The notes below the pieces were generated by a model. It was not told the DNA's origin. It ran no database searches and saw only the letters and a list, made by a program, of their open reading frames with translations. Below are positions 8,684 through 62,146 of a stretch of 64,000 nucleotides of DNA, one piece after another (position 1 is the stretch's first letter; each line of letters starts with the position of its first letter). This DNA is from an uncultured Chloroflexia bacterium. Its GTDB lineage: Bacteria > Chloroflexota > Limnocylindria > Limnocylindrales > CSP1-4. The stretch spans positions 14,387 through 78,386 of the forward strand of contig CAWBMK010000005.1 of NCBI GenBank assembly GCA_963789905.1. Direction: 5' to 3'. A program made the translations under genes and the position numbers.

Positions 8684-8703
8684 CGGTCCTGGGTCCCTTT
8701 CCT

Positions 8704-8997: not shown

Positions 8998-9084
8998 ATC
9001 GATAGTCTCTCACCACTTGCGCAAATACGCAAGTGCTGCCCCGAAGGGTCCGGGATCGGACTAGGCGCCTGACATACTGCGGGC

Positions 9085-23066: not shown

Positions 23067-23076
23067 ACTCTGCGAC

Positions 23077-34361: not shown

Positions 34362-35649
34362 GTGCGTATCGTCGACCTCAGCGGATGGGGGCGAGCTCCA
34401 TTCCATCGCCCTGCGCGAACCGATCGATCCCGACATCGCGGCGAGCGTCGCCGCCATCTGCGACGATGTTCGAGACCGAGGTGATGCGGCGCTCGTCGAG
34501 CTCACCCGTCGCTTCGACGGTGTGGACGTCGCCGGCCGGATCCAGATCGACGACAGGGAGATGGCGGCCGCCGTCGCTGGCGTCGACAACGAGATCATTG
34601 GCGTCCTCCAGCGACTGGTGGCCCGACTCTCGGTCTTCTGCGAACGGCAGCGGTTGGCCGACTGGGAGGTCGTCCGAGACGGAGTCCGCTTCGGGGAGCA
34701 TGTTCGGCCGATCCGAGCGGTGGGTGCCTACGCGCCTGGTGGCAGGGCGCTTTACCCATCGACGGTGCTGATGACCACCGTCCCGGCCGTCGTGGCGGGC
34801 GTCGCGAACATCGCCCTGTGCTCACCGCCGTCGACCGGCGGTGACGTTGCGCCAGTGTTGCTGCAGGCGGCCACGGTGGCCGGCGTGCATCGCGTCTACC
34901 GCATCGGCGGGGCGCAGGCGGTTGCCGCCCTGGCCTACGGAACCGACAGCGTTTCCAGCGTCGACAAGATCGTCGGGCCCGGCAACGCCTGGGTGACTGC
35001 CGCCAAGCGCCACGTGTCCGGGATGGTCGGCATCGATGGGCTGGCGGGGCCCTCGGACGCGACTGTCCTCTCCGATGGCCACGCCGACGCCGAGCTGGTC
35101 GCTTCCGAGCTTGTCGCCCAGGCCGAGCACGATCCCGACAGTCGTGGCTTCCTGGTGACGACCGATGGCACGCACGCCGAACGGGTCGTGGCCGCCGTCG
35201 AACGCCTGGCGGCAACGACTCCGCGAGCATCGATCGTTGGGGAGGCGCTGCAGGCGTCCGCGGTCATCGTCTGCGGTTCACTGGACCAGGCCCTGCAGAC
35301 GATCGATCGGCTCGCTCCGGAGCACCTCCTGATCCTTACCGACGATCCCGATGCCGTCCTTGGCCGGGCGCATGCTTACGGTGCGGCGTTCCTCGGACCC
35401 CTGACCTCGATCGTCGTCGGCGATTACGGCGGGACCTCGAATCACACCCTCCCGACGATGGGCACGGCTCGCTTCTCGTCAGGCCTTCGGACGGCCGATT
35501 ACCAGGTCGCGGCGGCGTATGTCGAGATGACGCCGGACGCCGTCCGGGCCACGGCGCCAGACATCGAAGCGCTCGCCCATCGCGAGGGCCTCCACGCGCA
35601 CGCCGCAGCCATCGCGTTGCGTCGACAGTCTCTGGAAGGCAGCGGGTGA
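34362..35649 (+). CDS. hisD: histidinol dehydrogenase family protein, with an apparent frameshift at codon ~8
   Basis: GTG at 34362 gives VRIVDLSG in frame 3; the rest (GGELHSIALREPIDP...VRDRGDAALVELTRRFDGV...GGAQAVAALAYGT...SQAEHD...DYGGTSNHTLPT) is in frame 1; switch at the GGGGG run 34387-34391. Confidence 0.7.
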
Positions 35650-37559
35650 TGGCGACCAGGATCGACACCACCTGGCGCGAGCGTCACGCCGCCAAGGTCG
35701 AGACCGCGGGCCAGGCCGTACGCCGGATTCGACACGGCTCGCGTGTCTTCATCGGATCGGGCGCGGGCGAGCCGCAATCCCTCGTCCGGGCGCTGTCGGC
35801 CCGCGAGAACCTCGATGACGCCGAGATCGTCCACATCATGACCCTCGGTGTCGCGCCATACACGGAGCCGAAGTTCGACCAGCGGTTTCGTCACAACGCA
35901 TTCTTCATCGGCGCCAACACCCGCGACGCTGTCAACGAGGGCCGCGCCGACTACACGCCCGTCTTCCTGTCCGAGATCCCTCGCCTCTTCCGCGATGCCC
36001 GGATCGTCATCGACGTCGCCCTGATCCAGGTCTCGGAGCCGGACATCCACGGCTACTGCAGCTTCGGCGTGTCGACAGACATCGTGAAATCGGCTGCCGA
36101 GAGCGCCAAGGTCGTCATCGCCGAGGTCGGATCGCAGGTACCGCGTGCTCTCGGCGACTGCTTCATCCACGTCCGCGACATCGCGGCGCTCGTCCCGTGC
36201 GACGACGCGATCCTCGAGGCTCCGCAGAGCGAGGAGAGCGAGCTCGCCCTGGCGATCGGTCGCCACATCGCCGATCTCGTCGAAGACGGGGCGACCCTCC
36301 AGCTCGGTATCGGCCAGATTCCCGATGCCGTCCTCCGCTATCTCGGCGACCGCACGGATCTCGGCGTCCATACCGAGATGTTCTCCGATGGGGTTCTCCC
36401 GCTCATCGAGGCCGGGGTCATCACCAACGCCCGCAAGACGCTCCATCGAGGCAAGATGGTCGCGAGCTTCGTTCTCGGGTCACGCGCCCTGTACGACTTC
36501 ATCGACGACAACCCGATGGTCGAATTCCACCCGACGGAGTACACGAACGATCCGTTCGTCATCGCCCAGAACGAGCGGATGACATCGATCAACTCGGCTC
36601 TGGAGGTGGACCTCACCGGACAGGTCTGTGCCGATTCCCTCGGGCCGCTCTTCTACAGCGGTATCGGCGGACAGGTGGACTTCGTCCGCGGTGCGGCGCG
36701 TTCGAAGGGCGGCAAGGCGATCATCGCCCTGCCGGCGACGGCCGAGGACGGCACGGTCTCGAGGATCGTGCCGGCTCTCAAGCCCGGTGCCGGCGTGGTC
36801 ACGAGCCGTGGCGACGTCCACTACATCGTGACCGAGTACGGGGTGGCCTACCTGCACGGCAAGACGATCCGGGAGCGCGCGACGGCCCTCATCCAGATCG
36901 CGCACCCGCGCTTCCGGCCGTGGCTCCTGGCCGAAGCGAAGTCGCGCCACATCGTCTACGCCGACCAGGTCGAACTGCCCTTTTCGATGCCCGTCTATCC
37001 GGACCGTTACGAGCGCTGGATCGACCTCCGTGACGGCTCGCGCGGGTTCATGCGCCCGATCCGGATGACCGACGAGCCGGGCCTCCGCGAGATGTTCTAC
37101 GCCCTCTCCGAGGAGACCGTCTACCACCGCTTCTTCCGGAGCCTTCCGACGATGCCCCATCAGCGGCTTCAGGAATGGCTGAAGGTGGACTACGAGCGCG
37201 AGATGGTGCTCGTCGTGACCGCCGGGATCGAGGGCGACGAGGCGATCCTGGCCGTTGCCCGCTACGACCTCGACCAGCGCACGAACCTCGCCGAGGTCGC
37301 CTTCGTCGTTCGTGACGACAACCAGGGGCAGGGCCTCGGAACCCAGCTGCTTGCGGCGCTCATCGACATCGCCCGCGAGCATGGCATCGCGGGTTTCACC
37401 GCCAGCGTCCTGGCCGACAACGTCGCGATGATGCGGCTGTTCCACGACGCTGTCCCGTCGCTCGAGAGTCGGCTCGATGACGGCGCCTACGACATCACCA
37501 TGCGCTTCGACGACGCGTCCCCAAAGCCTGCCGCGCCGTCCGACGAAGGTGGCGTCTAG
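35646..37559 (+). CDS. acetyl-CoA hydrolase/transferase family protein fused to a C-terminal GNAT acetyltransferase domain
   Basis: The N-terminal 430 aa carry Cat1/ScpC-family motifs (SINSALEVDLTGQVCADS, GIGGQVDFVRGA); the C-terminal 200 aa carry a GNAT Q/R-x-x-G-x-G/A loop (RDDNQGQGLGTQLLAALID). Confidence 0.8.
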   Translation: MMATRIDTTWRERHAAKVETAGQAVRRIRHGSRVFIGSGAGEPQSLVRALSARENLDDAEIVHIMTLGVAPYTEPKFDQRFRHNAFFIGANTRDAVNEGRADYTPVFLSEIPRLFRDARIVIDVALIQVSEPDIHGYCSFGVSTDIVKSAAESAKVVIAEVGSQVPRALGDCFIHVRDIAALVPCDDAILEAPQSEESELALAIGRHIADLVEDGATLQLGIGQIPDAVLRYLGDRTDLGVHTEMFSDGVLPLIEAGVITNARKTLHRGKMVASFVLGSRALYDFIDDNPMVEFHPTEYTNDPFVIAQNERMTSINSALEVDLTGQVCADSLGPLFYSGIGGQVDFVRGAARSKGGKAIIALPATAEDGTVSRIVPALKPGAGVVTSRGDVHYIVTEYGVAYLHGKTIRERATALIQIAHPRFRPWLLAEAKSRHIVYADQVELPFSMPVYPDRYERWIDLRDGSRGFMRPIRMTDEPGLREMFYALSEETVYHRFFRSLPTMPHQRLQEWLKVDYEREMVLVVTAGIEGDEAILAVARYDLDQRTNLAEVAFVVRDDNQGQGLGTQLLAALIDIAREHGIAGFTASVLADNVAMMRLFHDAVPSLESRLDDGAYDITMRFDDASPKPAAPSDEGGV

Positions 37560-37611
37560 TTCGTTCACTGCCGCGAGGCGGAGGGCCCTGCGCTACCATG
37601 CCCCGGCTCGT

Positions 37612-37685
37612 GGGCCCGTAGCTCAACGGTAGAGCAAGTGACTCCTGATCAGTGGATGAAGGTTCGGATTCTTCCGGCCTCGCCA
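37612..37685 (+). tRNA. tRNA-like gene, anticodon CCT (Arg), probably degenerate
   Basis: Cloverleaf GGGCCCG/TA/GCTC-AACGGTA-GAGC/A/AGTGA-CTCCTGA-TCAGT/GGAT/GAAGG-TTCGGAT-TCTTC/CGGCCTC-G-CCA; G-G mismatch in the anticodon stem, C-C mismatch in the acceptor stem, G at T-loop position 58; the 5' 31 nt plus about 20 nt upstream are identical to tRNA-Lys at 39225. Confidence 0.4.
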
Positions 37686-37741
37686 CGGTTCGCCCGTGGT
37701 GTCGCGTCGATGCGAGCTGCATCCCGTGAATCGTGATGTGC

Positions 37742-39154
37742 CTAATTCGTCCGACGGAAGACCGTGGGTCGATCGAAGGTGACGCCGACGAGACCCCTTG
37801 GCTCCCAGGAGATGTCCTGGGCAGTGTTGGCGACGTGGACGATCCCGCCGATCCCATAGGTTGGATCTGGCGAACCGCCGACGGCCGTGAGACGGGTCAG
37901 CACGGGATCGGGGCGGCCGCCGATCGAGAAGACCAGGCTGAGGAGGGGGCGCCCACTCCCGTCGACAGCAATCGACACGAGTCGCGATGTCCCGGCGACA
38001 GGCGCGACGTCGGCGATCCCATTCGTCCCGAACGACGCATCCATCGTGCCGGCCGGTGTCAGCTTGGCGACGCCGGCCGTCCACGGCGATCCGGACGGCG
38101 CAGCCGACGCGCCAAGGCCGACATAGATCGATCCGTCGGACGCAACCGAGATCTCGCGGAGGGCCGGCTTGAGATGGCGAGCCGGATCCTCGATCGTGAC
38201 CAGGCCGGCAGTGCCCCAGCTCGCATCTATCGTCCCGGTGTGGTTCATGCGGAAGACGTCGATGACGCCGCGCGGTCCGGCGAGCCAGCGGCGACTGACC
38301 CAGTACAGGCGTCCCGCCGAATCCACCCCCAGGGCGTGGCACTCCGGGATCCCCATATCGCGGTAGCCGGCTGGCCCGATCCTCGTATCGATGGCCCCGT
38401 TCGGCGTGAGGCCCGAGAGCTCCGTTCCTGTGCCGGTGAGATTGGCATTGTTGAGACACGCGCGAACGGATCCTCCCGCGAGTCGCACGACAACGGTCGC
38501 ATGCTCATACCCCGCGCGGATATCGCGAGGCAGGCTCCGCCCCCCGCTCAGGCCGTAGCCGGTATCGATCCTCCCCCGGGCGTCGAAGGCTCGGATCGCG
38601 CTGTATGGGCAGCAGTCCGCCAGGTGGGCGAGGAACCCGCCGTCAGCGGTCGGCAGAATGACGGTCACGCCGCCGATATCGCTCGAGAACGCGGCGAGCG
38701 GCCGACCCCCGTTGAAAGCTCGGTCGAGCCGCCCGGCTGCGTCGTAGACCGTCACCTCCGATGGGTGATCGAGGCCGGTCCCACACCGGTAGACCAGCAC
38801 GAAGACCCGCCCGGTCGGCGCGATCGCCACCTGGCCACCGGAGCCACAGTTGGGCTTGGTGTTCGGCCCTCGGGGAACGACGGCATAGCCGCGTCCGGCG
38901 AACGTGGGATCCAGCCAGCCGCCCGTTGACGCCGCGCCGGCGAAGCTAGCGGAGGCCGACCAGCCGCAGGCGATCGCCAACACGATGGCGATCGATCGGA
39001 AGCGACGCTGCATGACGGCTCCCCCGCTTGGTGGTGGGGCTTCGAAGCCCGACACCCTGCCGCTCGATTGTCGCACGCTCGCGCCAGCCACCAAGTCTGA
39101 AGATCGGACCATCTGCCCGAGGCGGTGCCGCGCGGGCTCGATTCCGCGGAGCAC
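37742..39154 (-). CDS. secreted repeat protein (delta-60-repeat / beta-propeller-like)
   Basis: Signal peptide MQRRFRSIAIVLAIACGWSASASFAGAAS; recurring units such as GTIDASWGTAG, GTMDASFGTNGIA, GRLDRAFNGG, GAIDTRIGPAG, GRIDTGYGLSG. Confidence 0.65.
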   Translation of the reverse strand: MLRGIEPARHRLGQMVRSSDLVAGASVRQSSGRVSGFEAPPPSGGAVMQRRFRSIAIVLAIACGWSASASFAGAASTGGWLDPTFAGRGYAVVPRGPNTKPNCGSGGQVAIAPTGRVFVLVYRCGTGLDHPSEVTVYDAAGRLDRAFNGGRPLAAFSSDIGGVTVILPTADGGFLAHLADCCPYSAIRAFDARGRIDTGYGLSGGRSLPRDIRAGYEHATVVVRLAGGSVRACLNNANLTGTGTELSGLTPNGAIDTRIGPAGYRDMGIPECHALGVDSAGRLYWVSRRWLAGPRGVIDVFRMNHTGTIDASWGTAGLVTIEDPARHLKPALREISVASDGSIYVGLGASAAPSGSPWTAGVAKLTPAGTMDASFGTNGIADVAPVAGTSRLVSIAVDGSGRPLLSLVFSIGGRPDPVLTRLTAVGGSPDPTYGIGGIVHVANTAQDISWEPRGLVGVTFDRPTVFRRTN

Positions 39155-39224
39155 GGCGAGCTCTCACTCAGGCCAGGTCGGCCGGGGGCCGACGAGAGCC
39201 GTGCGCTACTATTCCCCGGCTCGT

Positions 39225-39299
39225 GGGCCCGTAGCTCAACGGTAGAGCAAGTGACTCTTAATCACTAGGTTCTCGGTTCGAATCCGAGCGGGCTCACCA
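39225..39299 (+). tRNA. tRNA-Lys (anticodon CTT)
   Basis: Complete cloverleaf: acceptor GGGCCCG/CGGGCTC (one G-U pair), D arm GCTC-AACGGTA-GAGC, anticodon arm AGTGA-CTCTTAA-TCACT, T arm CTCGG-TTCGAAT-CCGAG, discriminator A, encoded CCA. Confidence 0.8.
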
Positions 39300-39322
39300 C
39301 GAATCTAGGCACGAAAAGGCCC

Positions 39323-39342
39323 CTTCGGTGTCCGCCGAAGGC
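39323..39342 (+). terminator. GC-rich hairpin downstream of tRNA-Lys
   Basis: CCTTCGG-tgtccg-CCGAAGG perfect 7 bp stem 24 nt after the tRNA; no U-tract. Confidence 0.3.
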
Positions 39343-39505
39343 ATCTCCGATGCCGCGCGCCCATCGGCGCACGCCCGACATTGTCGTGTACCGCGCGAGC
39401 GCCAGGCACAGGGAGGGCACCATCCCCCGAGAGCATGAAGATGCCGGTCGCCCAGGCGGAGGAGCTGGAAGCCCTGGACGGGCCTGACCACCCCTCGTTG
39501 CTAGC

Positions 39506-40711
39506 GTGCGTCGTGCGCGCCCCTTGTCCGCGGTGAACACTCGCGCCCGATTGGGGGCGGGCATCGTCGGGTGGCTGACCCTCCTCGCCATCGGCTGGAC
39601 AGGACTGCTCATCCCGTCGCTCGTCCGCTCGATCGAGGGGACCTTTGGGCAGACCGACGCGGGAATCGGAACCGTCTACCTGGCCTACGCCCTCGCCTAC
39701 GTCGCTGGTTCGTTCGGCGGCGGTTCCCTGGTCGAGCACCTCGGTCGTCGCACGGTCCTGGGCGGCGCGGTGGTCGTCCACGCGCTCGGCGTCGCCGGCC
39801 TCGGCCTGGCCCCCTCGTGGATGCTTTTCGTGGTGGCGGCGTTGACGGCGGGCGTCGGGGCTGGCTGCCTGGACGGCGGAGCAAATGGCCTCGTCCTCGA
39901 CGTCTACCGCGAGCGCCGCGGTCGGGCCATGAACCTGCTGCACGTGGCGTTCGGCGTCGGAGCCCTCGCCGCCCCCGTCGTCGTGGGCACCCTGGTGGAG
40001 GCCGGCGTCCCGTGGCAGGCCATCGCCGTGGGGACGGGTGTGGTCGTCTCGCTGCTGGCCATCGCTTATGCCGTTGTGCCGATGCCCAGCGGTCGGCAGA
40101 CGGCCGCAGCTGAAGGCACACCCGGGTCTGCGACCTCGGGCGGACGGGGTGGCCGCGGGGTGCTCGCTGGCCCTCTGCTGCTCCTCGGCATCGCGATCGC
40201 AACATACGTGGCATCGGAGGTCGGCGTCTCGAGCTGGCTCGTACGGTTCCTGGAACCGGCGCCGCTGACGACTGCGACCCTTGCCCTCTCGCTCTACTGG
40301 GCGGGGCTGACCGTCGGACGCCTCGTCTCGTCTGCCATCGCGGACCGATTCGACCACCGGCGGTTCACTATCGCCTGCGTGACGAGCTTGGCCGTGCTCA
40401 TCGCCGTCGCGGTGCTCGTCCCGAGCCTGCCGCTGTCGATTGTCGCCTTTGCGGTTGCCGGCGTCGCGTCAGGCCCGGTCTTCCCGATGATCCTTGCCAT
40501 CGGCGGCGACCACCACCCGGATCGATCGGCGGCCGTCGGCGGGTCTCTGGCCGGCATGGCGATCATCGGCTCGACGGTCTATCCGCCGTTGATGGGCTTC
40601 TTGTCCGTCACGGTCGGGCTGACGTTCGCCATGCTTGGCACCGTCGTGCTTGCGATCGCCAGCGCGGTCGCGCTCGTGGCCTTCGGCCGGGAGACGCGAC
40701 ACCGCGGCTGA
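39506..40711 (+). CDS. MFS transporter
   Basis: 401 aa, 12 predicted TM helices, MFS loop 2-3 pattern GGSLVEHLGRRTVLGG. Confidence 0.8.
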   Translation: MRRARPLSAVNTRARLGAGIVGWLTLLAIGWTGLLIPSLVRSIEGTFGQTDAGIGTVYLAYALAYVAGSFGGGSLVEHLGRRTVLGGAVVVHALGVAGLGLAPSWMLFVVAALTAGVGAGCLDGGANGLVLDVYRERRGRAMNLLHVAFGVGALAAPVVVGTLVEAGVPWQAIAVGTGVVVSLLAIAYAVVPMPSGRQTAAAEGTPGSATSGGRGGRGVLAGPLLLLGIAIATYVASEVGVSSWLVRFLEPAPLTTATLALSLYWAGLTVGRLVSSAIADRFDHRRFTIACVTSLAVLIAVAVLVPSLPLSIVAFAVAGVASGPVFPMILAIGGDHHPDRSAAVGGSLAGMAIIGSTVYPPLMGFLSVTVGLTFAMLGTVVLAIASAVALVAFGRETRHRG

Positions 40712-40962
40712 TCGATCCGGGCCAACCATGGACGGGAACCAGCCAAGACGACGGCCATTGGCACTGATCTGCCCGCGACGACGTCCGATCCCTTCACCGA
40801 GATAGTGCGTTGGCGATCCCGAGCTAGTCCCGGCCAGCCCGAGCGGAGGCGCCCGGGGGATTACCCGAATCCTTACCCCTGCGGGTGGTTTATGGGGGTA
40901 ATCGTGGACAATGGCGGACACCCTGCACGCTCGAAACGTGCAACCATGCGTGCTCGAGAAGG

Positions 40963-41008
40963 ACTCTTGATCACTAGGTTCAGGGTTCGAATCCCTGCGG
41001 GCTCACCA
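40963..41008 (+). repeat. orphan 3' half of a Lys-type tRNA (anticodon loop through CCA), no 5' half
   Basis: ACTCTTGATCACT-AGGT-TCAGGGTTCGAATCCCTG-CGGGCTC-A-CCA matches positions 32-76 of the tRNA-Lys at 39225, with compensatory T-stem changes (CTCGG/CCGAG to CAGGG/CCCTG); upstream sequence cannot form the D and acceptor arms. Confidence 0.5.
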
Positions 41009-41031
41009 CGAAGCCGGGTACAACATTCGGG

Positions 41032-41331
41032 ATGGCTGGCGTGATCGCCACGACGCTCAAGCAACCGAGCGCATTCATTCCGCTGGTGATGTCGCTCGCC
41101 GCCTTGGCTGTGCTTGTCGGTCACATCGTCTTTGTCGGCGTCGCCCGAGAGGCCGATGAAGGGACCGCCGCCCATCTCTGGCAGCTCCTCATGGCCGGAC
41201 AAATTCCGGTCATCGCATACTTCGCGATCACATGGCTGCCGCGCCGTCCGCGCGAAGTGCTGTTGGTCCTCGCGCTCCAGGTGGCTGCCTGGGTCGCTGC
41301 GGCTGCCCCGGTCTACCTCCTCGAGCTCTAG
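41032..41331 (+). CDS. small membrane protein (2-3 TM), hypothetical
   Basis: 99 aa, strongly hydrophobic, GC3-rich; followed by the hairpin GCGTC-gcgga-GACGC. Confidence 0.4.
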   Translation: MAGVIATTLKQPSAFIPLVMSLAALAVLVGHIVFVGVAREADEGTAAHLWQLLMAGQIPVIAYFAITWLPRRPREVLLVLALQVAAWVAAAAPVYLLEL

Positions 41332-42241
41332 CGTCGCGGAGACGCGTCCGGCGCAGGGCCGCAGCGTCTTTGGGAGGCCCACTGCAGAGACACCGCCGCG
41401 GCCAGCGCACGGGAGCCGATACGGCCCCTGAAACGACGAGAGGACCCGGCACCGCCGAGTCCTCTACAAACCCATTCGCGTCCCGGTCATGAGCCAATTT
41501 CGCGAACAGATCTGATGCGCCGCGATAGGCGTTTGACCCTGAACTGCGTTACCCGGCTTTGTCAGCTCCGGACCACGCCGTGGAGGACGACCTATCTGCA
41601 GTTAGCAGCCCTCGTGAAAGGACCGCCCGGCGGCTCGCTACACCGCCAGAACAGGAGCCGTAGGCCGACTCGGTCGGGTATCGACCCCTCTCGGGGCTGC
41701 CGGTCCCGACCGTTGCCGAGAACTCGTCCGGAACGCTAAGCCCAGGTATCGTCCCTCGAGGTTCGAGCGCCGCCCTCCGGCTTTGCCCTCTCCTCCCAGG
41801 CTTGAGCCCAGCGAGCCGGATCCATCCCCGAAACGGGTTGACAGATCCCGGTTCCTACTCCACCTGCACCCGACAAGGGTTCAGCCTCAGGGCAGTCCCA
41901 TCAGCATCGCCCCCATTCGTCCACCCCGCCCGTGGCGACACAGGTTGGGTGGGCGGCGGCAAATCTAGCACGTCGATCGCCTGTCGAAAAGCCGAAAGTA
42001 CTATCCCGCCGACATTACTTGTTGACAGATGTCACCATCGAGATCGACTCCTCCGCATTAGCCATATCCGCCACGGGCCTCCGCGCACTGGAATCTGCGC
42101 GATCCACTATCGCGAAGACGACGTATTCAAGGTGGACCCCTGGACGCAGTCCGACGTCCCAAGCTCGAGCTTCGGGAGCCTGGGCCACCCGGTCTGGCGG
42201 GCAACCGGGGGTCCACCCAGCGGCCCGTACACTCGTTCCGT

Positions 42242-42628
42242 ATGGGAAGCGACAATCGCTCGGCGGTGTCCCTGAAGCGGATGCACGTGGTCGCCGCCGC
42301 TTTGCTCGCCCTGTCCGGCGCGCAGGCGATCGTCTACGCAGGCCTCCTCCCCCTGGCGCCCTTCAGCGACGTGCCCGTCCCGATCGTCTGGCAGCTGTTC
42401 GGGATCGCCAGCCTGCTGGCGGCCGTAGGTGTCTACCTCGGCCGGACGTGGGGTCGCTGGCTGGGCGTGGTCGTAGTCGTGATCACGCTTGCGCTGGATG
42501 GACTGCCGACCGCTGCCGACGTGACTGCCTCGGGCTCGGCGATCCCGCTTCTTGTCTTGGCGGTCGGCGTCGCAATTCAGGTCGTCATCCTGTGGGTGCT
42601 ACTTCGTCGCTGGGCCATCGAGCAGTAG
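42242..42628 (+). CDS. small membrane protein (4 TM), hypothetical
   Basis: 128 aa with four hydrophobic helices, GC3-rich. Confidence 0.45.
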   Translation: MGSDNRSAVSLKRMHVVAAALLALSGAQAIVYAGLLPLAPFSDVPVPIVWQLFGIASLLAAVGVYLGRTWGRWLGVVVVVITLALDGLPTAADVTASGSAIPLLVLAVGVAIQVVILWVLLRRWAIEQ

Positions 42629-42645
42629 CGAGTCGCCGGTCGACG

Positions 42646-43005
42646 CTATGCCGAATTGGTCATCTCCGGCTCTGCGGTCTCGTCGACGATCGGCCACCAG
42701 CCGTGGCACAACACGACCTGATCGAGGTCGAGCTGCTCGCTGAGGAACACGCGGACACCATCCAGCCAGAAGGTTTCCTCGGGGCTGTCCTTGGGGTGTT
42801 TGAACAGCTCGGGGCGGCTGTCGAGGAGGAAGCGAGCCGTCTCGGGTCGCATGGCGAGCGCGACGTTGCTCTTGTCCCAGCGTTCGGCGTCGGCGAGCCT
42901 GGCCCGGTTGAGGAGGCCGCGGGCCCGTCCCAGCAACCCATCACGGCGGTCGGCCGCCGCATCACGCTGGCGGCGCGTCTCGGCTCGCTGATCCTCGGGC
43001 TTCAT
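42646..43005 (-). CDS. hypothetical protein
   Basis: 119 aa, soluble, codon usage consistent with the host; no recognisable motif. Confidence 0.4.
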   Translation of the reverse strand: MKPEDQRAETRRQRDAAADRRDGLLGRARGLLNRARLADAERWDKSNVALAMRPETARFLLDSRPELFKHPKDSPEETFWLDGVRVFLSEQLDLDQVVLCHGWWPIVDETAEPEMTNSA

Positions 43006-43102
43006 CTACGCCAGCATACGGCAGCGCGATCCGGGTCTCGACAGAGACCCCCTCAACCGGTCTCGACAGCGATCGCCTAAACCGGTCTCGACGGCGGTCC
43101 CT

Positions 43103-43864
43103 TCAATCTGGTGCGGCGCAGATCCCTGGAGGGTCGCGGTCGGTGCTCTCGCCTTGGGCGACACGCCAGGCCCACGCGTAGAGAGCGGCAATATCGGCGT
43201 TCTTCCCAAGAATTCCGATGTAGATGTCGCCGTAGCACGTCAGGCGGATGTTTGCCGTCCCGTTCTCATCGAGAAAGCAACCGGAGCGCATGGGTCGATA
43301 GCCTGGACTGCCGTCGTCTTGCTCATCGGGCTGATAGTCGGGCCACGAGCTGTCGCCGGGTTTGCCGGCCTGGCAATCGCCTGTCCGCGGTTTGACCCGG
43401 TACTCGGCCAGCTTGTCCAGGTACGTCTGAATCGCGGGATCGAGTCCTTCTGCGCCCGCGGTTGGACCAAAGCCGTAGACGCCGACGCGGTCGACAAGGG
43501 CGGTGTCCACGTGACACTCGACCGCTGCCGTACTAAGAGTGGGCAAGTTGGTTCGTCGAGGCGCGCAGCCGATATGGGCGTCTGCGCGAAGGGCATCGAG
43601 CAGCCTTCGTTCGGCAGCGGTGTACGTGGGACTTGCCACCGGGGACGGGCTGGCAGCCGGAACGGAGGCGGTCGACGAAGGCGAGGCGATCGGGCCGGCC
43701 GACGCCTGATCTGGGCTCGCCGATGCGCTCGGGGTCTCGACCACGATGGGGCTCTCGGTTGGACCCGTCGTGGCTTCTGGGCTGGCGGACGACGAACAAG
43801 CAAGGATGCTGATCGACGATGCGATGAGTACCAGTCGCAATGACCGAGGGAGCGGTCTGAACAT
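43103..43864 (-). CDS. lipoprotein with Ser/Pro/Ala-rich linker and Cys-containing C-terminal domain
   Basis: Signal peptide with lipobox SISILAC-S; low-complexity PSASASP linker; the C-terminal 140 aa carry several Cys. Confidence 0.6.
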   Translation of the reverse strand: MFRPLPRSLRLVLIASSISILACSSSASPEATTGPTESPIVVETPSASASPDQASAGPIASPSSTASVPAASPSPVASPTYTAAERRLLDALRADAHIGCAPRRTNLPTLSTAAVECHVDTALVDRVGVYGFGPTAGAEGLDPAIQTYLDKLAEYRVKPRTGDCQAGKPGDSSWPDYQPDEQDDGSPGYRPMRSGCFLDENGTANIRLTCYGDIYIGILGKNADIAALYAWAWRVAQGESTDRDPPGICAAPD

Positions 43865-43956
43865 GCAACCTCCTGGCGATCATTTTGACGAGTGGTTCGC
43901 CCACCTGCCATGACTGACGAGATCACTTCGTAACACACCCAACCCGAGGACGTCCT

Positions 43957-44531
43957 TTGAGCATGCAGATCGCGACTGCCTCTCGACTGCGGGTTGTAGT
44001 CGTCGGCCTGGCCCTCCTCATCGCTACCGTGGCCGGGTGCACCGGCTACGCGACGCCAGGCGCTGGCCGTCCCGAATTCCCACTGGTCGCCTGTCCGTTC
44101 GAGGGTCCGGCGGCGCGCCGGCACCGCCCGGCCACACGCTGGTGGCTCCGGGCACGATCGCGTTCGGGTCGAACATGGGGCTCCGCAATGTCAGCGGGAG
44201 TGACGAGACCTGCGGAGCGCAGGCCGTCCGCGATGCCGAGACCACGATCTCGTTCTCATCGCTTGGTGGCGAAGACAGGATCTTCTGGGTCGCCACCCTT
44301 GCCCGCCCGGGCAATCTCACGACACCCGATCCGATCCTGCCGACGATGACCCTCCTGCGTCTCGATCCGGAAGGGCCTGTAGTGGTCGACACGGCGACCC
44401 AGGAACCCGCCACCGAGTACTCGATGCGTGGCCAGTACGGCCATGACGCGCGGCCGGGCGCTTACCTGATGCGCATCGTCTCTGCCTCGGGAGATCTCCT
44501 GGCCGAAGGCCGGTTCGAGATCGTCGAGTGA
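43957..44531 (+). CDS. lipoprotein, apparently frame-shifted after the signal peptide
   Basis: Frame 1 N-terminus MSMQIATASRLRVVVVGLALLIATVAGCTG (lipobox) and frame 3 C-terminus (track ORF 44037..44531); switch within the GC tract 44105-44120. Confidence 0.45.
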
Positions 44532-45694
44532 CGGTCGCCTCGACGAGTCGCCCGCAGTCCGTCTTCCTGGCCGTCATCGATGCCGCGCCAGCAGCCGCGA
44601 TCGTCCAGTGGGGCATCCTCATCCTCGCCTTCTTCACGTCAGTCGAGCCGTACGCCGTGGGGACTTGGGGGATCGGCGCGCTGGTGGGGCTGGTTGCACT
44701 GGGCATGCTCGCCGGGTTGGCCGGCGGTGGCGCGTTCGGGGCGTCGGGCGCCATCGTGGGATTCGCAGCCGCGGTCGCGATCCAGCTGTTTGTTCTCGTA
44801 GGCCAGGCTGTCGGGAACATCGGTGTCGTTGCAGGCCTGGGCGAGCCGCCCTGGTCGGAACGGGTGGCGGCGGCGCTTGCGATCGGGTTGGCGGCGGTGA
44901 TCGGCGGCTACCTGCTCGTGACCGTCGGTCGCGCCGTGAGCGGCCGCAGACGCGGAGAGCTGGTTCCCGGGCCGGGCTGGTCGCGGCGCGTTGTCCTCGT
45001 GGCGGGCGTGCTGGTCGCGACGGGACTCGTCACAGCGCTTCTGCTTGCGAGTGCCGCCAAGTCTGCCTACGTGATGCCCAGCGACCAGCCGAGCGTCGGT
45101 CTCGAGGTGGATGGCGACCAGATCACCAGCGGCGTTCCCGTGGGTCTGCTCGCCGGGCGCACGGGAATCGACGTGCGCAGGATCCGCGATGGACTCGGAG
45201 ACATTGCGATCACGTCCAGGCTGACGCCGGCCGAGAGCGTCGCCCTCGAGTCGGGCCGGGTCCCGTACGAGAAGATCAACGAAACGTTCATCGGCGGATC
45301 GACTGGAACTCGCGAGGAGCGGCGCCACGTCCAGTTCGAGGGGCCCGGCATCTACGCATTCGTGATCTGGGACGGGCTTCACGAGCCGGATGCAGCTGGA
45401 TCCAGCCCCGTTCATGACGCACAGGTATTCGAGGTTGTCGCTGGGCCATCCGGGGCGTCGGGCGTGCCGATCGATGGCGGAGCCTTGGTCACCTTGGGGG
45501 CTCTGCTCGGTGTCCTGCTGGGCGGTCTTTCGGCCGCGGGAATCGCTCTCGTCGTGCGGCGCCGACGTTGGATCGATGGTGGTGGACCCCGGACCAGGCA
45601 CCTGGGAGTCGCCGCGGCCGCTGGGACCGTCGCCGCGCTGCTGCTTGGCGGATACGCTCTGATAGCCATCGACCTGGCTCGAAACCCGTTCTAG
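44528..45694 (+). CDS. membrane protein, hypothetical
   Basis: 388 aa; N-terminal four or five TM helices, a soluble middle domain, C-terminal two TM; start overlaps the upstream stop. Confidence 0.55.
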   Translation: MTVASTSRPQSVFLAVIDAAPAAAIVQWGILILAFFTSVEPYAVGTWGIGALVGLVALGMLAGLAGGGAFGASGAIVGFAAAVAIQLFVLVGQAVGNIGVVAGLGEPPWSERVAAALAIGLAAVIGGYLLVTVGRAVSGRRRGELVPGPGWSRRVVLVAGVLVATGLVTALLLASAAKSAYVMPSDQPSVGLEVDGDQITSGVPVGLLAGRTGIDVRRIRDGLGDIAITSRLTPAESVALESGRVPYEKINETFIGGSTGTREERRHVQFEGPGIYAFVIWDGLHEPDAAGSSPVHDAQVFEVVAGPSGASGVPIDGGALVTLGALLGVLLGGLSAAGIALVVRRRRWIDGGGPRTRHLGVAAAAGTVAALLLGGYALIAIDLARNPF

Positions 45695-45808
45695 GCGCGA
45701 ATCCGGCCTGACGTTTCCTGCAACGGTCGACTGCGGCGATCGCCGCGGCCCGACGGCCACCGCGAGTGGGGCGGTACGATCGACGCCTACATCCACGAGG
45801 AGGTTGTC

Positions 45809-46129
45809 ATGGCGAAGTATCTGATCTCGGCGTCGTATTCGACCGAGGGTGTCCGTGGTGTGATGAAGGAGGGTGGCACGGCCCGGCGGGACGCGATCGC
45901 GAAGGGGATCGAGGCCTTGGGTGGACGGCTGGAGGCGTTCTACTTCGCATTCGGGAAGGAGGACGTCATTCTGATTATCGAGGCGCCCGACAACACGACG
46001 GTGGCCGCACTCAGCTTGACCGTCTCAGCGAGTGGCGCAGTCGGCTCGCGGACGACTGTCCTGTTGACACCTGCAGAGATCGATGCGGCGACAAAGATGA
46101 CGGTCAGCTACCGGCCACCCGGTGCGTGA
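45809..46129 (+). CDS. GYD domain protein
   Basis: MAKYLISASYSTEGVRGVMKEGGTARRDAIAKGIEALGGRLEAFYFAFGKEDVILIIEAPDN, including the eponymous G-x-x-D-(x)n segment; Shine-Dalgarno GGAGG upstream. Confidence 0.7.
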   Translation: MAKYLISASYSTEGVRGVMKEGGTARRDAIAKGIEALGGRLEAFYFAFGKEDVILIIEAPDNTTVAALSLTVSASGAVGSRTTVLLTPAEIDAATKMTVSYRPPGA

Positions 46130-46200
46130 ACCCATCCGCGCGCGACGCGGCTCGTAACAACCGAGGTCTTCAGGCGTGATCTCTCCAGGATGACGACCTG

Positions 46201-46797
46201 ATGGACCTCTACAGCACCAAGTCGTCGATCGTCGGGCGGCTCACACCGCTCCTCGCCTGGTTGGAACGCAGGCAGGTGAGCCCGGACGCCGTCACGTTGG
46301 CCGCGGTGCCGGTCGCGATCGCAGGTGGTGCCTGCCTGCTCATGTCACCGGCGGCTCCGCCGATTCTGATCCTCGTGCCGATCGCATGCGCAAGTCGGCT
46401 CGTGCTCAACCTTCTCGACGGCGCTCTCGCCCGACGAACAGGTCGGATGCACGCCCGTGGCGAGCTGTTCAACGAGCTTGCCGACCGGGTTGCGGACGTC
46501 GCACTCCTGGTCCCGGTCGCATTCCTGCCCGGGGCGCAGCGGGAGACGGTCCTGCTGGGTGTGCTCGGATCGGTGTTCGCCAGCTTCGCCGGCCTTGCCC
46601 CACGGGCGGCCGGAGGGGAACGTATATACCGCGGGATCCTCTCGAAGCCCGGCCGCATGGTGCTCTTGTCGACGTTCGCGATCATCGTCCTCATCGCCGG
46701 TCCACAGGCATGGTGGCCGTTCGGGCCCATTCTCCTGGTCGGCACGATCCTCACGGCCGCCGAACGCATCGTCATCGGCGTGCGGCGGCTGCCTTGA
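46201..46797 (+). CDS. CDP-alcohol phosphatidyltransferase family protein (PgsA/PIP-synthase-like)
   Basis: Motif D-G-x2-A-R...G-x3-...D-x3-D in [31 protein letters not shown]; six TM helices. Confidence 0.8.
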
Positions 46798-47717
46798 ACC
46801 CAGTCAACTACTGCGCAGCGGTGCTGATCGGGGCAGCGGCCGTCGGCCTTGCTGCAGCGGGGCTGTTCGCCGGCTATCGACGTCTTCGCCCCGGAGCGGG
46901 GGTAGCGCCACAGACGGCGCTCCAGCGTGCCGCTAGCTATGCGGCGCTCGCCTTCGTCCTGGCGATCGCCGCGCTGGCGGGAACTCCCGGGGTGGCCCTC
47001 CTGTGCGCCGTCCTGGCGGGCGTCGGGCTGATCGAATGGGGTCGACTGACCGACCTCCCGGCGCAGCATCGCATCGCGCTCCAGGTGGCGAACGTGGCGA
47101 TCGTGGCCGCAGTGGCCGTCCGCGGTCCCGAAGCGGCTGAGGCGCTCATCGGTGGACTGGTTCTCATCGGCATCGCATGGCCCGTCGTCCGTGCCGACAC
47201 CGGCCGCGCCATCCGTGACCTTGGCATCGCTGCCGTCGGCTGCATCGTCCTGTCGGTGCTCCTTGTCCATGGCGTCGCGCTCTCTTATCGATACGGTGAG
47301 CTCGGGACATCGCTGTTCGTGGCCCTTGCCGTGGCGTGCGCGGTCTCGGACGTCGCGGCCTTCCTCATCGGCCGCAGCCTTGGTAGGACTCCCCTTGCGC
47401 CAACGCTGTCCCCGAACAAGACCCGAGCCGGCGCGGTCGGCAACGTCGTCGGGGCGGCCATCGGTCTTGCGGTGTTCGCCCCGATCCTCCTGCCGTGGCT
47501 CGGTCCGGCGATGCTGCTGGTCTTCATCCCCCTCGTCGCGTTCGGGGCCATCTGGGGCGACCTGCTCGAGTCGGCGGTCAAGCGGGAATTCGGGGTCAAG
47601 GACGCCGGATCCTGGCTGCCCGGCTTCGGCGGGATCCTCGATCGGATCGACTCGCTGCTCGTCGTCCTGCCGTTGGCCTACTGGTCTCTCAGGCTCGTCG
47701 AGGTCAATCAGCCATGA
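46794..47717 (+). CDS. cdsA: phosphatidate cytidylyltransferase
   Basis: C-terminal signature [15 protein letters not shown] ... [26 protein letters not shown] (here [24 protein letters not shown]); TTG start overlaps the upstream stop (TTGA); the track ORF 46386.. is over-extended. Confidence 0.8.
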
Positions 47718-48346
47718 GCGAGTGGCAGTTCTCAACGCCGGCCGTTGTGGCCCGCGAAACGACGGCATGGCTCTTCGGACCGATCCTGGGCTGGCTGGTC
47801 CATGGTCCGTCGGTGTCGGGCTCCGAGCACCTAGGCGAAGTCGAACCTCCCTTCCTCGTCTGTCCGAACCACACCAGCCATTTCGATTTCTCCACGATGC
47901 GGCTGGCTCTCGGACGACGCCACCGCCGCCGGCTTGTCGCAACGGCGGCCGCCGATTACTGGCAGACGCGACGGTTGCGATCCTTCCTCTCGTCATGGGT
48001 CGGGGCAATGGCGTTCCAACGGCACGCGGCGGGAACGGAGTCGATCAAGACGATCGAGCGGCTCCTTGGGTCGGGCTGGAATGTCCTGCTCTTCCCCGAA
48101 GGAACGCGAAGCCGCACGGGAGAGATCGCCGCATTCAAGCCAGGCATCGGACTCGTGGCCGCCAGAACCGGGCGGCCGGTCCTGCCTGTCCACATCGTGG
48201 GCCTCCACGGCGTGCTGCCGCCCGGTGCCCGACGACCACGGCGCCGCCATGTCGAGGTGCGGTTCGGACCACCGTTGATGATCGGGGCGGGTGAGGATCC
48301 GCGCGCATTCGCCGCCCGGCTCGAGGGGGTCGTGCGCGAGCTGTGA
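47714..48346 (+). CDS. 1-acyl-sn-glycerol-3-phosphate / lysophospholipid acyltransferase (PlsC family)
   Basis: HX4D motif NHTSHFD and FPEGTRS block; ATG overlaps the cdsA stop (ATGA). Confidence 0.8.
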
Positions 48347-48470: not shown

Positions 48471-49244
48471 TCAGCTGCGGGTGAAGTGGAGTTGGAACTC
48501 CATGGTCCCGTGGTCCTCGACCGAGAGGACGATGAACGAGCTCGGCTTCTCCATGTCGTAGTCGGCGAAGACGATATCGGTCGAACCGGTGACGGTCACC
48601 GTATCGCCGTCGAGCGTCGCCGTCAGCGGGATCGTCACGCTCTGCGTCTGACCGTGGAGGGTCAGGTCGCCCGTCGCTGTCGCCGTCAGCTGCTGACCGT
48701 CCGCTGGGACTGAGCCGAGCTCGATCGGCGACGTGAGGGTGAAGGTCGCGTCAGGGAACTGCTCTGTCTGGAGGGCCTGGCGACGAAGCTGTCCGTCCCG
48801 CCGGTTGTCGTCGCTCTGCAGGCTCGTGAGGTCGGCCTTGATGTCGACGGCGGTCACCTGTGAGCCGGCCAGGGTCAGAGTTCCGGTCACGTCAGGCGTT
48901 CGCCCAACAGCCTCCTGGCCACCGATCCCCGCCAGCTCCTCTGTGACCCGGTAGCCGACGAACGAGCCCGTCGAGTCCGCGAACGAGCCGATCGATGGGT
49001 CCACCGTCCATGTGCCGTCGAGGCCGGTCGCCGGATTCGACGATGCCGATGGATCCTTCGATGGCGCGGCCGACGCTCCCGCGTCCGACGACGCAGCGGG
49101 CTGCGATGCGACCGGGCTTGCCTGACCAACCGGTGCAGGGCCCGAAGGGCGGAGGAATAGATACCAGAGCCCGGCTGCGGCGGCACCGACCACGGCGACG
49201 ATGGCGATGACGGCGACGAGCCGGGTTGTGGCGGATCGGTCCAT
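48471..49244 (-). CDS. YceI family protein, N-terminally membrane-anchored
   Basis: TM anchor then Ser/Ala-rich linker; YceI-like beta-barrel region (TWTVDPS...VGYRV...TGTLTLAG...HGTMEFQ). Confidence 0.75.
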   Translation of the reverse strand: MDRSATTRLVAVIAIVAVVGAAAAGLWYLFLRPSGPAPVGQASPVASQPAASSDAGASAAPSKDPSASSNPATGLDGTWTVDPSIGSFADSTGSFVGYRVTEELAGIGGQEAVGRTPDVTGTLTLAGSQVTAVDIKADLTSLQSDDNRRDGQLRRQALQTEQFPDATFTLTSPIELGSVPADGQQLTATATGDLTLHGQTQSVTIPLTATLDGDTVTVTGSTDIVFADYDMEKPSSFIVLSVEDHGTMEFQLHFTRS

Positions 49245-49318
49245 TGGGTTGACTCTCCGGTCTGCGGGTCCTGCAGGATAGTTGCTGGCTCAATGATGTG
49301 CAGGCGAACCTGAGACGT

Positions 49319-50698
49319 TCATGAGAGCTGCGGCGGCACGGAGGGCGGCGGCAGTGGGGCCGCTGGCGGTGCGGGCGTGGCCGGCAGGCGGACGCTGAAC
49401 CGGGCACCGCCCTCCTCGCGGTTCGTCACCGCGATCGTGCCGCCATGTCGTTCGACGATCCAGGCGGCGATCGAGAGACCGAGGCCCGTGCCGCCCTCAG
49501 GGGCGTCCGGCGCCTGCCAGAAACGCTCGAAGATGTGGGGGATGTCGTCCGGCCGGACCCCCGGCCCGGCATCCTCGACGACGACGGTCGCGTCCCGCCC
49601 ATCCGCTCGGACCACGATGCGTACCGCCGACCCGGGCGGGCTGTGGCGGATGGCGTTGTCGATGAGGATCAGGTGGAGCTGACGGAGGCGTGTCGGGTCG
49701 CCCGTCGTCACGATCGGATCGAGCTCGAGGACGAGGCCGACGGCATGAGCTTCGGCCGGCCCGGCCAATCCCGCGGCCGCCTCCGCCGCGACCTCCGAGA
49801 GGTCGACCGGGATCGTCTCAAGCTCGACGGCACCGGAGTCCGAACGCGCGAGCAGGAGCAGGTCGTCTACGAGACGGGTCAGGTGGTCGGTCTCGGCCCG
49901 GATGTCGTCGAGAGCCGTACCGACGGAGCCGACAGGCTCGTCTCGATGTCGATCGAGGTGCTCGATCGACGTGCGGACGACGGTCAACGGGGTCCTCAGC
50001 TCATGACTGGCGTCTGCCGCAAACTCGCGCTGGCGACGGAGAGCTACCCTCTGGGCGCTGAGCGAGTCGCGGATCGGCACCAGGGCGCGCCGGGCATAGA
50101 CGGCACCGAAGCTCGACGCCACCAGCACGGCCAGAAGCCCACCGACGACGAGGACCGCGGCCAGGACATCGAGCGTGTGCTGCTCCGCGCTGCGATCGGC
50201 GACGACCTGGATGATGAACGTCCCCGCCTGTGAACGAACATCGTCGCTGAGGATGCGCCAGGGCACGTCCGAGATCGTGGCGGTCCGAACGTCATAACCT
50301 GAGGATCGGGCGGCTCCGACCGAGTCCGAATCGGGCAGTCCGCGGGGCAGCTCGAAACCCGACGGGCCGACCACCCGATCGTCGGGGTCGACGAGGAAGG
50401 CGACAGTGCCCGACGAGCGACCTCCGAACGCGAAGCCCAGGGGAGGTCCGCCCGGACGTTGCAACGATTCCATGATCGCCCGCGCCCGGATCTCGAGCTG
50501 CTCGGTCCCGGCAACGGCGAGCGACCGCGCAACGGCTAGATAGAGGATCGAGCCAAGGACGAGGAGGATGACGAGCGTGACGCCCCCGCTCCACAGGACG
50601 AGGCGTCGGCGAACGGAGCGGACGAGCCGCTGATCGTTCTCGAGGGACGCCAGCTCGACCGGGTCCGCCGCGGCGGTCAGGATCTCGGACTCAGGCAT
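49319..50698 (-). CDS. sensor histidine kinase (two TM, HAMP, HisKA, HATPase)
   Basis: H-box ASHELRTPLTVV; N, G1, G2 boxes (LIDNAIRHS, EDAGPGV, GTGLGLSIA). Confidence 0.85.
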   Translation of the reverse strand: MPESEILTAAADPVELASLENDQRLVRSVRRRLVLWSGGVTLVILLVLGSILYLAVARSLAVAGTEQLEIRARAIMESLQRPGGPPLGFAFGGRSSGTVAFLVDPDDRVVGPSGFELPRGLPDSDSVGAARSSGYDVRTATISDVPWRILSDDVRSQAGTFIIQVVADRSAEQHTLDVLAAVLVVGGLLAVLVASSFGAVYARRALVPIRDSLSAQRVALRRQREFAADASHELRTPLTVVRTSIEHLDRHRDEPVGSVGTALDDIRAETDHLTRLVDDLLLLARSDSGAVELETIPVDLSEVAAEAAAGLAGPAEAHAVGLVLELDPIVTTGDPTRLRQLHLILIDNAIRHSPPGSAVRIVVRADGRDATVVVEDAGPGVRPDDIPHIFERFWQAPDAPEGGTGLGLSIAAWIVERHGGTIAVTNREEGGARFSVRLPATPAPPAAPLPPPSVPPQLS

Positions 50699-51368: not shown

Positions 51369-51382
51369 GGGTCAGCCGCCGC

Positions 51383-52030: not shown

Positions 52031-52039
52031 GGTGTCTCC

Positions 52040-55060: not shown

Positions 55061-55157
55061 GACACTCCAGTTTGGCCTTTGAGCTGAGAACGTGTTGAGA
55101 GTCGGCTGGCGAAGATGAGCGCGCCGACCGTCTGGTCGGCGCGCCCTGGGAAGGGGA

Positions 55158-55892: not shown

Positions 55893-56021
55893 CGGCCGAT
55901 GACCTCCTGGGTGGGTAGGGCCGGCGGAGGAGGAGGCCGGCCCTTGTCGACCACTCTGGGGCGGCTCCCTGAGGAGGTCATGAGAGTGCGGACCATGCTA
56001 CATTTCGGTTGCCCTTTGGCC

Positions 56022-60648: not shown

Positions 60649-60660
60649 GACGTCTCCGCC

Positions 60661-60730
60661 GAGGGCGCCTCCGCTAGGGCGCCTCCGCCTCAGCCGAGGG
60701 CGCCTCCGCCTCAGCCGAGGGCGCCTCCGC
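60661..60730. repeat. 21-bp tandem repeat (about three units) encoding the AEAPSAE repeats at the C-terminus of the 60674-62128 protein
   Basis: tcagccgagggcgcctccgcc repeated, with a partial third copy. Confidence 0.7.
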
Positions 60731-62128: not shown

Positions 62129-62146
62129 GGCCGCTGAGTCTATCGG

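Follow-up and report, generated by a model that had tools for sequence, protein, structure and literature searches.

A tRNA gene accompanied by a same-orientation fragment of one of its ends is the defining footprint of elements that integrate by means of a tyrosine integrase; the attachment site of the element, attP, includes a portion of the tRNA that makes the gene whole again, and the original portion is displaced. An arrangement of this kind is described here for a 64,000-nucleotide stretch of DNA (the window) from an uncultured soil/freshwater Chloroflexia bacterium of the order Limnocylindrales (assembly GCA_963789905.1, contig CAWBMK010000005.1), in which an intact tRNA-Lys(CTT) gene stands between a tRNA-like gene that shares its 5′ part and an orphan copy of its 3′ part. 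In the Islander survey of genomic islands within tRNA genes, 3760 islands were accompanied by a 3′ fragment and 159 by a 5′ fragment, with 3′ fragments lying downstream and 5′ fragments upstream of the tRNA gene; an attP centred on the anticodon was found in 2083 of the 3919 islands, which makes this the commonest crossover site of tRNA-targeting tyrosine integrases (PMC4383910). The crossover sublocations recognised by Islander are the anticodon loop, the T loop and the T/acceptor junction. A second relevant class is formed by cis-mobilisable elements (CIMEs), decayed integrative elements that keep attL and attR, lack genes for integration and transfer, and often occur in tandem accretions (PMC5704250).

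The locus is best explained, with a probability that we put at roughly 0.7, as an integration hotspot at a tRNA gene that holds integrase-less remnants of repeated site-specific recombination, the crossovers having fallen in the anticodon loop of tRNA-Lys(CTT). At least two recombination events, and probably three, would have taken place. The scars are most likely leftover junctions of old mobile-element insertions, a common kind of scar that calls for no new system or mechanism. Repeated integration or recombination at a tRNA-Lys locus had already been proposed in the initial annotation, and the proposal is strengthened by the position of the repeat boundaries in the anticodon loop and by the gene order of a syntenic relative, the contig L165.

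ARAGORN calls two tRNA genes in the window, a tRNA-Arg(CCT) at 37612-37685 (element 1) and a tRNA-Lys(CTT) at 39225-39299 (element 2). Both exceed the gathering score of 29 bits of the Rfam tRNA model RF00005, with 46.4 and 72.9 bits, respectively. A third Rfam match at 40950-41005 stays below threshold at 19 bits and coincides with an orphan 3′ half (element 3). The features on which the argument rests are as follows.

37581 to 37651, forward strand: left copy of the 5′ direct repeat, running into element 1 (repeat search, alignments)
37612 to 37685, forward strand: element 1, a chimeric tRNA-like gene (ARAGORN, Rfam, folding, absence from L165)
39194 to 39264, forward strand: right copy of the 5′ direct repeat, running into the intact tRNA-Lys
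39225 to 39299, forward strand: element 2, the intact tRNA-Lys(CTT) (ARAGORN, Rfam, folding, comparison with L165)
39300 to 39355, forward strand: hairpin-containing flank 3′ of the tRNA-Lys, homologous to the downstream flank of a tRNA fragment in L165
40894 to 40961, forward strand: left flank of the orphan fragment (the S flank), conserved in L165
40962 to 41021, forward strand: element 3, the orphan 3′ portion of a tRNA-Lys (tRNA part 40962-41008) with 13 nt of repeated downstream sequence

Two direct repeats relate these elements to one another. The 5′ repeat (37581-37651 versus 39194-39264; 71 nt, 92% identity, spacing 1613 nt) comprises 31 nt of upstream sequence and the first 33 bases of the tRNA, which are identical, followed by a partly matching anticodon loop. 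The 3′ repeat (39253-39312 versus 40962-41021; 60 nt, 85% identity, spacing 1709 nt) extends from the anticodon stem to the CCA end and 13 nt beyond. Together the two repeats tile the intact tRNA-Lys, and their sole overlap is the anticodon stem-loop at 39253-39264. The stretch from 30 to 48.5 kb yielded no other piece derived from tRNA-Lys; a fourth decayed fragment was considered between the stop codon of the MFS transporter gene and the S flank, and also near the GYD gene, and was rejected at both places as not significant. The initial annotation had recognised the intact tRNA-Lys at its exact coordinates as well as an orphan 3′ half with compensatory T-stem changes and no 5′ half, and both descriptions hold, the latter by repeat search and Smith-Waterman alignment. 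It had also noted that element 1 shares 31 nt of the tRNA and about 20 nt upstream with element 2; the sharing is real and its extent larger, at 33 identical tRNA bases and 31 nt of upstream sequence.

The arrangement reproduces the configuration of Islander islands in several respects. A full tRNA gene is paired with same-orientation fragments on both sides, namely element 3 and the 5′ part of element 1; the 5′-sharing copy (37581-37651) lies upstream and the 3′ fragment (40962-41021) downstream, and both extend past the ends of the tRNA. Both repeat boundaries fall at a recognised sublocation, the anticodon stem-loop; the one relative available, L165, lacks the intervals at its orthologous locus; and the tRNA has had its 3′ half restored with a compensated allele unlike the displaced one. 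Elements 2 and 3 would then represent an incoming element that brought its own 3′ half, leaving the tRNA, the insert and the displaced 3′ fragment in the same orientation, and elements 1 and 2 would be the rarer mirror image, with a 5′ fragment upstream of the tRNA. At the left junction, the promoter region and 5′ half of the tRNA-Lys would have been fused to a foreign tRNA-like 3′ arm. The recombination genes would later have been lost, so that one gene is left in each interval, as in remnants of cis-mobilisable elements or decayed islands. A tyrosine integrase presumably made the junctions. The genes bracketed by the tRNA-derived elements can be spoken of as putative cargo only, since their composition is host-like and the MFS family to which one of them belongs is common in the lineage.

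Gene order in a relative bears directly on this scenario. The nearest species representative for the hydrolase gene to the left of element 1 is a Candidatus Limnocylindrales (Chloroflexota) at 87% amino-acid identity, and it is not syntenic. The only syntenic relative found was L165, a Candidatus Limnocylindrales-like contig from JGI (89% identity), which is collinear with the window on both sides of the locus over the following segments.

L165 28-2662, corresponding to window 34876-37510: hisD and the hydrolase gene
L165 3733-4066, corresponding to window 45798-46129: GYD
L165 4165-8271, corresponding to window 48477-52668: YceI, a histidine kinase, a response regulator and two genes without Pfam families, as called in L165

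Between the hydrolase gene and GYD, the distance is about 1.0 kb in L165 and 8.2 kb in the window. The L165 interval contains an SRPBCC gene, a tRNA-Lys(CTT) at 3288-3362 and, after a spacer of 125 nt, an orphan 3′ fragment at about 3489-3537, with only about 200 nt between this fragment and GYD; element 1, the secreted delta-60 repeat gene between elements 1 and 2, the MFS gene between elements 2 and 3, and the segment from 41.0 to 45.8 kb are all absent. A single tRNA-Lys(CTT) without the two intervals is what an insertion site predicts for a relative, as the initial annotation had reasoned. It had also weighed the opposite outcome, an ancient, stable and vertically inherited array of tRNA genes and relics into which nothing was inserted. 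Element 3 and its left flank do occupy the same relative position in L165, and to that extent the array interpretation is correct. However, it is correct for element 3 only: L165 has neither element 1 nor the two intervening genes, the interval there is about one-eighth as long, and element 1 is neither conserved nor a canonical tRNA. We give the stable array next to no weight.

The same comparison shows that the flanks of the tRNA-derived elements have changed partners. The tRNA-Lys of L165 is 94% identical to element 2 and identical to it through position 46, and its T stem is that of element 3 (CAGGG/CCCTG); it thus combines the 5′ half of element 2 with the T-stem type of element 3. In blastn, L165 3420-3540 matches window 40894-41012 at 74% over 121 nt, and L165 3497-3593 matches window 39261-39355 at 75.5%. 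To its left, the L165 fragment is bordered by sequence that corresponds to the S flank (Smith-Waterman score 123 versus 43 ± 8.5 for shuffles, with about 70-90 nt conserved), whereas its right flank, which contains a hairpin, is homologous to the right flank of element 2 and not to that of element 3 (51 versus 20.5 ± 4.2, with 0 of 500 shuffles reaching this score). It follows from these homologies that, between the window and L165, the units lying right of the core in the anticodon loop have been re-assorted relative to those on its left; re-assortment of this form is the kind that exchange at a fixed core would be expected to produce. Because the L165 fragment and its left flank are orthologous to element 3, the 3′ scar is older than the divergence of the two lineages. 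Similarity between the regions upstream of element 2 and of the L165 tRNA is suggestive (p about 0.09) and does not decide which 5′ copy is native. Within L165, the tRNA and its fragment have 25 identical 3′-terminal bases in common, a hint of gene conversion.

The non-coding sequences that align with L165 at about 74-75% are window 40894-40961 and 39300-39355, matching L165 3420-3488 and 3538-3593, and blastn recovered no other intergenic sequence at the locus. These two flanks may be constrained by a function, such as that of integrase arm sites or a terminator.

Could the part-copies have arisen by ordinary homologous or illegitimate recombination, with no integrase involved? Several routes are conceivable: DNA of a related strain could have entered by Campbell-type insertion through the shared 64 nt, tRNA-Lys could have converted a neighbouring tRNA gene of another kind, or deletions could have eroded a tandem array of tRNA-Lys genes. 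The lack of a recombinase gene, the host-like composition and an MFS family native to the lineage all suit such an origin, as does the fluidity of gene order among relatives, where the hydrolase gene occurs in at least five contexts and the flanks of the MFS gene are common only to near-identical genomes; the 25-base identity in L165 suggests in addition that gene conversion acts here. The main weakness of this explanation is that two independent repeat boundaries fall within the same few bases of the anticodon stem-loop, which is not expected of random breaks. The fragment configuration moreover follows the rules of islands, the 3′ halves are distinct compensated alleles and not decayed copies, and this core is again the point about which the flanks are re-assorted between the window and L165. 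An internal deletion is also unsupported: to the left of 40962, no similarity to a tRNA 5′ half or to the upstream region was found, Smith-Waterman scores being no better than those of shuffles. We consider an origin without an integrase unlikely.

Element 1 is a chimera of a tRNA-Lys-identical 5′ part and a foreign 3′ part. When it is aligned with element 2, only 4 of 64 positions left of anticodon position 35 are mismatched, compared with 16 of 42 from there to the CCA end (Fisher p = 7e-5). Two stem pairs are marked as non-standard by Rfam, 4:69 (C-C) and 28:42 (G-G). Both mismatches amount to G/C transversions on the 3′ side, and a 5′ half with G4 and C28 would pair; this pattern is expected if a 3′ half that had co-evolved with another 5′ half was joined to the 5′ half of tRNA-Lys. 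The T loop reads TTCGGAT, which places G at position 58, and the remaining diagnostic positions are U20, C35 and G37, with anticodon CCT. The anticodon, the two mismatched pairs and G58 agree with what the initial annotation had described. No 3′ half similar to that of element 1 was found in the 1.87 Mb of loci compared.

Folding sets element 1 apart from the intact gene. Its cloverleaf has an energy of -13.1 kcal/mol versus -27.7 kcal/mol for element 2, and lies 7 kcal/mol above the minimum-energy fold of the same sequence; that fold takes a form other than the cloverleaf, and its stability does not exceed that of shuffled sequences (z +0.58, versus -2.99 for element 2). With C4-C69, G28-G42, G58 and this energy, element 1 does not make a canonical cloverleaf of a tRNA-Arg(CCU). 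In bacteria, arginine identity normally uses A20 and C35, the latter being a major determinant for the arginyl-tRNA synthetase (ArgRS) of E. coli, and tRNAs that read ANN codons carry A37, the site of the t6A modification. Of these features, only C35 is present in element 1; U20 and G37 do not fit. We take element 1 to be a relic junction, probably of the attL type, and presumably non-functional.

Nevertheless, a functional element 1 has to be weighed, namely a recently created tRNA that decodes AGG and is expressed, charged (most plausibly with arginine) and under selection, and that would have arisen either as a tRNA gene birth through attachment-site recombination or by an anticodon shift. 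In its favour, ARAGORN reports a tRNA and the Rfam score passes the gathering threshold; the shared upstream segment is kept, including a TAnnnT hexamer (TACCAT, with TACTAT before element 2); and the major arginine identity element C35 is in place. AGG is used at 4.4 per 1000 codons, so that a CCU or UCU tRNA-Arg is needed somewhere in the genome. In addition, the 5′ half of element 1 shows 0 changes in 33 nt, versus 4-5 in 31 nt of the adjoining upstream sequence (P about 0.003 if both were neutral). This identity is, however, explained just as well if the copy came from a close relative or if element 2 keeps it uniform by gene conversion. The two stem mismatches, the G58 T loop, a cloverleaf less stable than the molecule's own best fold, an energy no better than that of shuffles, and the presence of U20 and G37 where A20 and A37 would be expected all argue against function, and the absence of element 1 from L165 implies that the lineage's normal tRNA-Arg(CCU) must lie elsewhere. 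On present sequence evidence, a functional element 1 appears distinctly improbable. Its more specific form, an expressed chimera in which attachment-site recombination would have joined the promoter and 5′ half of tRNA-Lys to a foreign CCU 3′ half and so made a new AGG-decoding gene, we regard as highly unlikely; if it were true, the integration of elements would be a route to tRNA gene birth.

Comparison with remolded tRNA genes, the paralogues produced by anticodon shifts, shows the limits of the alternative. Element 1 resembles them in having a tRNA-Lys 5′ half and an anticodon, CCT, that is one base from CTT. It differs in that no point change on a duplicate is involved, the whole 3′ part being of other origin with mismatched stems, and in that the copy is not conserved in L165.

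Element 2 is presumably a working tRNA-Lys(CTT) gene, since AAG is by far the main lysine codon (12.2 versus 0.5 per 1000 for AAA). Its T stem (CTCGG/CCGAG) differs from that of element 3 (CAGGG/CCCTG) by two compensatorily changed base pairs. Because the differences are compensated and the T stem of element 3 recurs in the tRNA-Lys of L165, the window's two 3′ halves are two alleles of functional type, neither being a decayed copy of the other. Position 37 is G in all of the junctions that are not intact tRNAs (element 1, element 3 and the L165 fragment) and A in both intact tRNAs.

The S flank, at 40894-40961, can be understood as the right end, or P arm, of an old element. GGAC-containing motifs recur in it. 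Other accounts of the region around element 3 were tried and set aside. A whole tRNA that lost its D arm or 5′ half by internal deletion was suggested by a by-eye resemblance to the acceptor 5′ strand and promoter, for which Smith-Waterman alignment gave no signal; a 7-bp 'acceptor' pairing from the Rfam mascRNA model is at chance level (E = 0.41); and the S flank with element 3 is not significantly folded as a structured RNA (z -0.36 and +0.43). A scan for promoter and terminator consensus sequences yielded nothing useful.

In other respects the locus departs from Islander islands. Neither interval contains or overlaps a gene for a tyrosine integrase (PF00589), and at 1.6-1.7 kb, with one gene each, both are shorter than the 2-200 kb of such islands; because they fall outside these two bounds, the intervals are read as decayed remnants. 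Their composition is host-like, and the 5′-type junction keeps a complete tRNA-like 3′ arm where unrelated element sequence would be usual. The likeness to CIMEs is that direct repeats resembling attachment sites surround short segments, no recombination or transfer genes were found, and several junctions have accumulated at one target gene. The difference is that CIMEs belong to families of integrative and conjugative elements in Streptococcus with a demonstrated parent and mobilisation in trans, whereas for the present segments neither an integrase nor an excision product is known, and no parent element was found.

Several findings weigh against a decayed integration hotspot. No integrase, excisionase or other mobility gene is present, so that the enzyme is postulated, and the bracketed segments are host-like in GC content, in GC content at third codon positions (GC3) and in tetranucleotides. 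The MFS family has hundreds of homologues at 70-82% identity in the lineage, and most of 80 related loci have no nearby tRNA. With one syntenic relative, a deletion in L165 is not strictly separable from an insertion in the window, and the order of events is not fixed. The match between the downstream flank of element 2 and that of the L165 fragment is not predicted by the simplest canonical model; an extra step is needed for the re-assortment of flanks, which could be the differential loss of elements in tandem, excision followed by re-insertion, or gene conversion. The unchanged 5′ half of element 1 could mean that selection is ongoing. Finally, four exact-pattern scans of viral contigs gave no matching attP-like sequence. 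An origin from a phage or provirus was rejected on these scans, on blastn against phage genomes, which returned only generic tRNA-Lys matches, and on the lack of PHROG matches to the cargo open reading frames (ORFs). On the other side, homologues of the gene between elements 1 and 2 reach at most 35% identity, which supports the hotspot.

The genes and intervals around the elements are these.

34522 to 35649: hisD, in the left flank of the locus
35646 to 37559: acetyl-CoA hydrolase/GNAT fusion gene, in the left flank, beside element 1
37742 to 39013, reverse strand: secreted beta-propeller protein, delta-60/DUF5122-like, the sole gene between elements 1 and 2
39533 to 40711, forward strand: MFS_1 transporter (Pfam MFS_1, E = 6e-35), the sole gene between elements 2 and 3
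41022 to 45797, no strand assigned: variable segment that follows element 3 on the right and has no counterpart in L165

The delta-60-like protein matches Pfam DUF5122 at E = 6.6e-6, its 26.7 bits falling slightly short of the 27-bit cutoff; its database entry (P0121) carries a precomputed PF17164 match, and the N-terminus resembles a signal peptide. Its best homologue in a search of 5.8 billion proteins is 35% identical, and no tRNA occurs at the locus of that nearest homologue (L170). The gene has a host-like GC3 of 0.81. The MFS protein is identical to a database entry of 392 amino acids (P0001). Nucleotide homology between the MFS gene and its homologues stops at the ends of the coding sequence. 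The two genes correspond to the delta-60-repeat protein and the MFS transporter that the initial annotation had placed between the elements.

That annotation had also reported no integrase, and the domain searches concur: in six-frame ORFs of at least 75 amino acids across 40.7-48.5 kb, no integrase or recombinase domain was found and only six unrelated Pfam families were matched, and the interval from 37.6 to 40.7 kb is filled by the delta-60 and MFS genes, with no room for an integrase. The variable segment at 41022-45797 contains small ORFs without family assignment and stretches of weak coding signal at slightly lower GC, its sole Pfam match being a sub-threshold DUF2127; it gave no PHROG matches. 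Composition is host-like from 37.6 to 41 kb and mildly atypical from 40.5 to 44 kb (GC 0.65-0.665, tetranucleotide z 1.2-2.1).

Gene order in this lineage seems unusually fluid. Relatives at 80-90% identity have the hydrolase/GNAT fusion gene in at least five gene contexts; three contigs place it between rplL and rpoB, and its upstream neighbour is tRNA-Ala in L001 and hisD in the window and in L165. No further syntenic relative was found among L001, L164, L166, L167, L168, L169 and the contig of P0191, where the hydrolase gene stands in other contexts. L166, in which an MFS gene directly follows the hydrolase gene, was rejected as an ancestral arrangement because that MFS protein is unrelated (31% identity over 81 amino acids).

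One relative of the MFS gene is itself bracketed by tRNA sequence. In L082 (ENA ERZ25039464 contig_8220, 7780-9290), a 78%-identical MFS homologue stands alone between a tRNA-Val(CAC) gene at 7780-7856 and a degenerate copy of the tRNA-Val 3′ end, from the T loop to the 3′ end plus 8 nt, at 9262-9290; the local alignment of this fragment scores 38 versus 20.8 ± 2.5 for shuffles, with 0 of 1000 as high. The bracket has the architecture of elements 2 and 3, at a different tRNA and a different sublocation. In the sister contig L083, the tRNA lies 1.6 kb farther from the MFS gene and the fragment is lacking; a small ORF downstream of the MFS homologue there (9847-10181) holds about four 84-nt repeats that are absent from L082. 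The MFS gene as an always tRNA-flanked cassette was rejected: most of the 80 metagenome loci, and L081 as well, have no adjacent tRNA, and homology ends at the borders of the coding sequence. That single-gene intervals are still mobilised in trans as minimal cassettes is a possibility, and one less novel than an expressed element 1.

The locus indicates that tRNA-targeted integration has shaped the genomes of uncultured Limnocylindrales (Chloroflexota), and that integration scars can outlast divergence at the species level with their flanks re-assorted. Of minor interest in its own right is the combination of 5′- and 3′-type scars on the same gene, a chimeric pseudo-tRNA, and an old scar with re-assorted flanks. 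There is also a practical consequence, as automatic pipelines will count 37612-37685 as a tRNA-Arg(CCT) of this metagenome-assembled genome, and estimates of tRNA complement and completeness for the lineage could be inflated. The S flank together with the tRNA-Lys 3′ half (GTGGAC..CTGCACGCTCG..GACTCTTGATCAC..GGTTCGAATCCCTGCGGGCTCACCA) provides a search key for the parent element and its integrase.

A few further features of the window were observed. Between GYD and YceI, at 46180-48346, lie three genes on the forward strand that are missing from L165, where YceI directly follows GYD: a CDP-alcohol phosphatidyltransferase at about 46201-46797, a CdsA-like cytidylyltransferase within 46194-47717 and a PlsC-like acyltransferase within 47387-48346. 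The window and L165 therefore differ by a second insertion or deletion, in which no tRNA is involved. In the gene-poor stretch just past the start of a reverse-strand ORF (42646-43005), three tandem 25-nt units occupy 43034-43108 (GGTCTCGACAGAGACCCCCTCAACC; 84% and 76% identity to the first unit), and each opens with the short inverted repeat GGTCTC..GAGACC. The strongest tetranucleotide outliers of the window lie at 20500-23500, 54000-56000 and 60000-62500 (z 2.6-3.05), above anything at the tRNA-Lys region.

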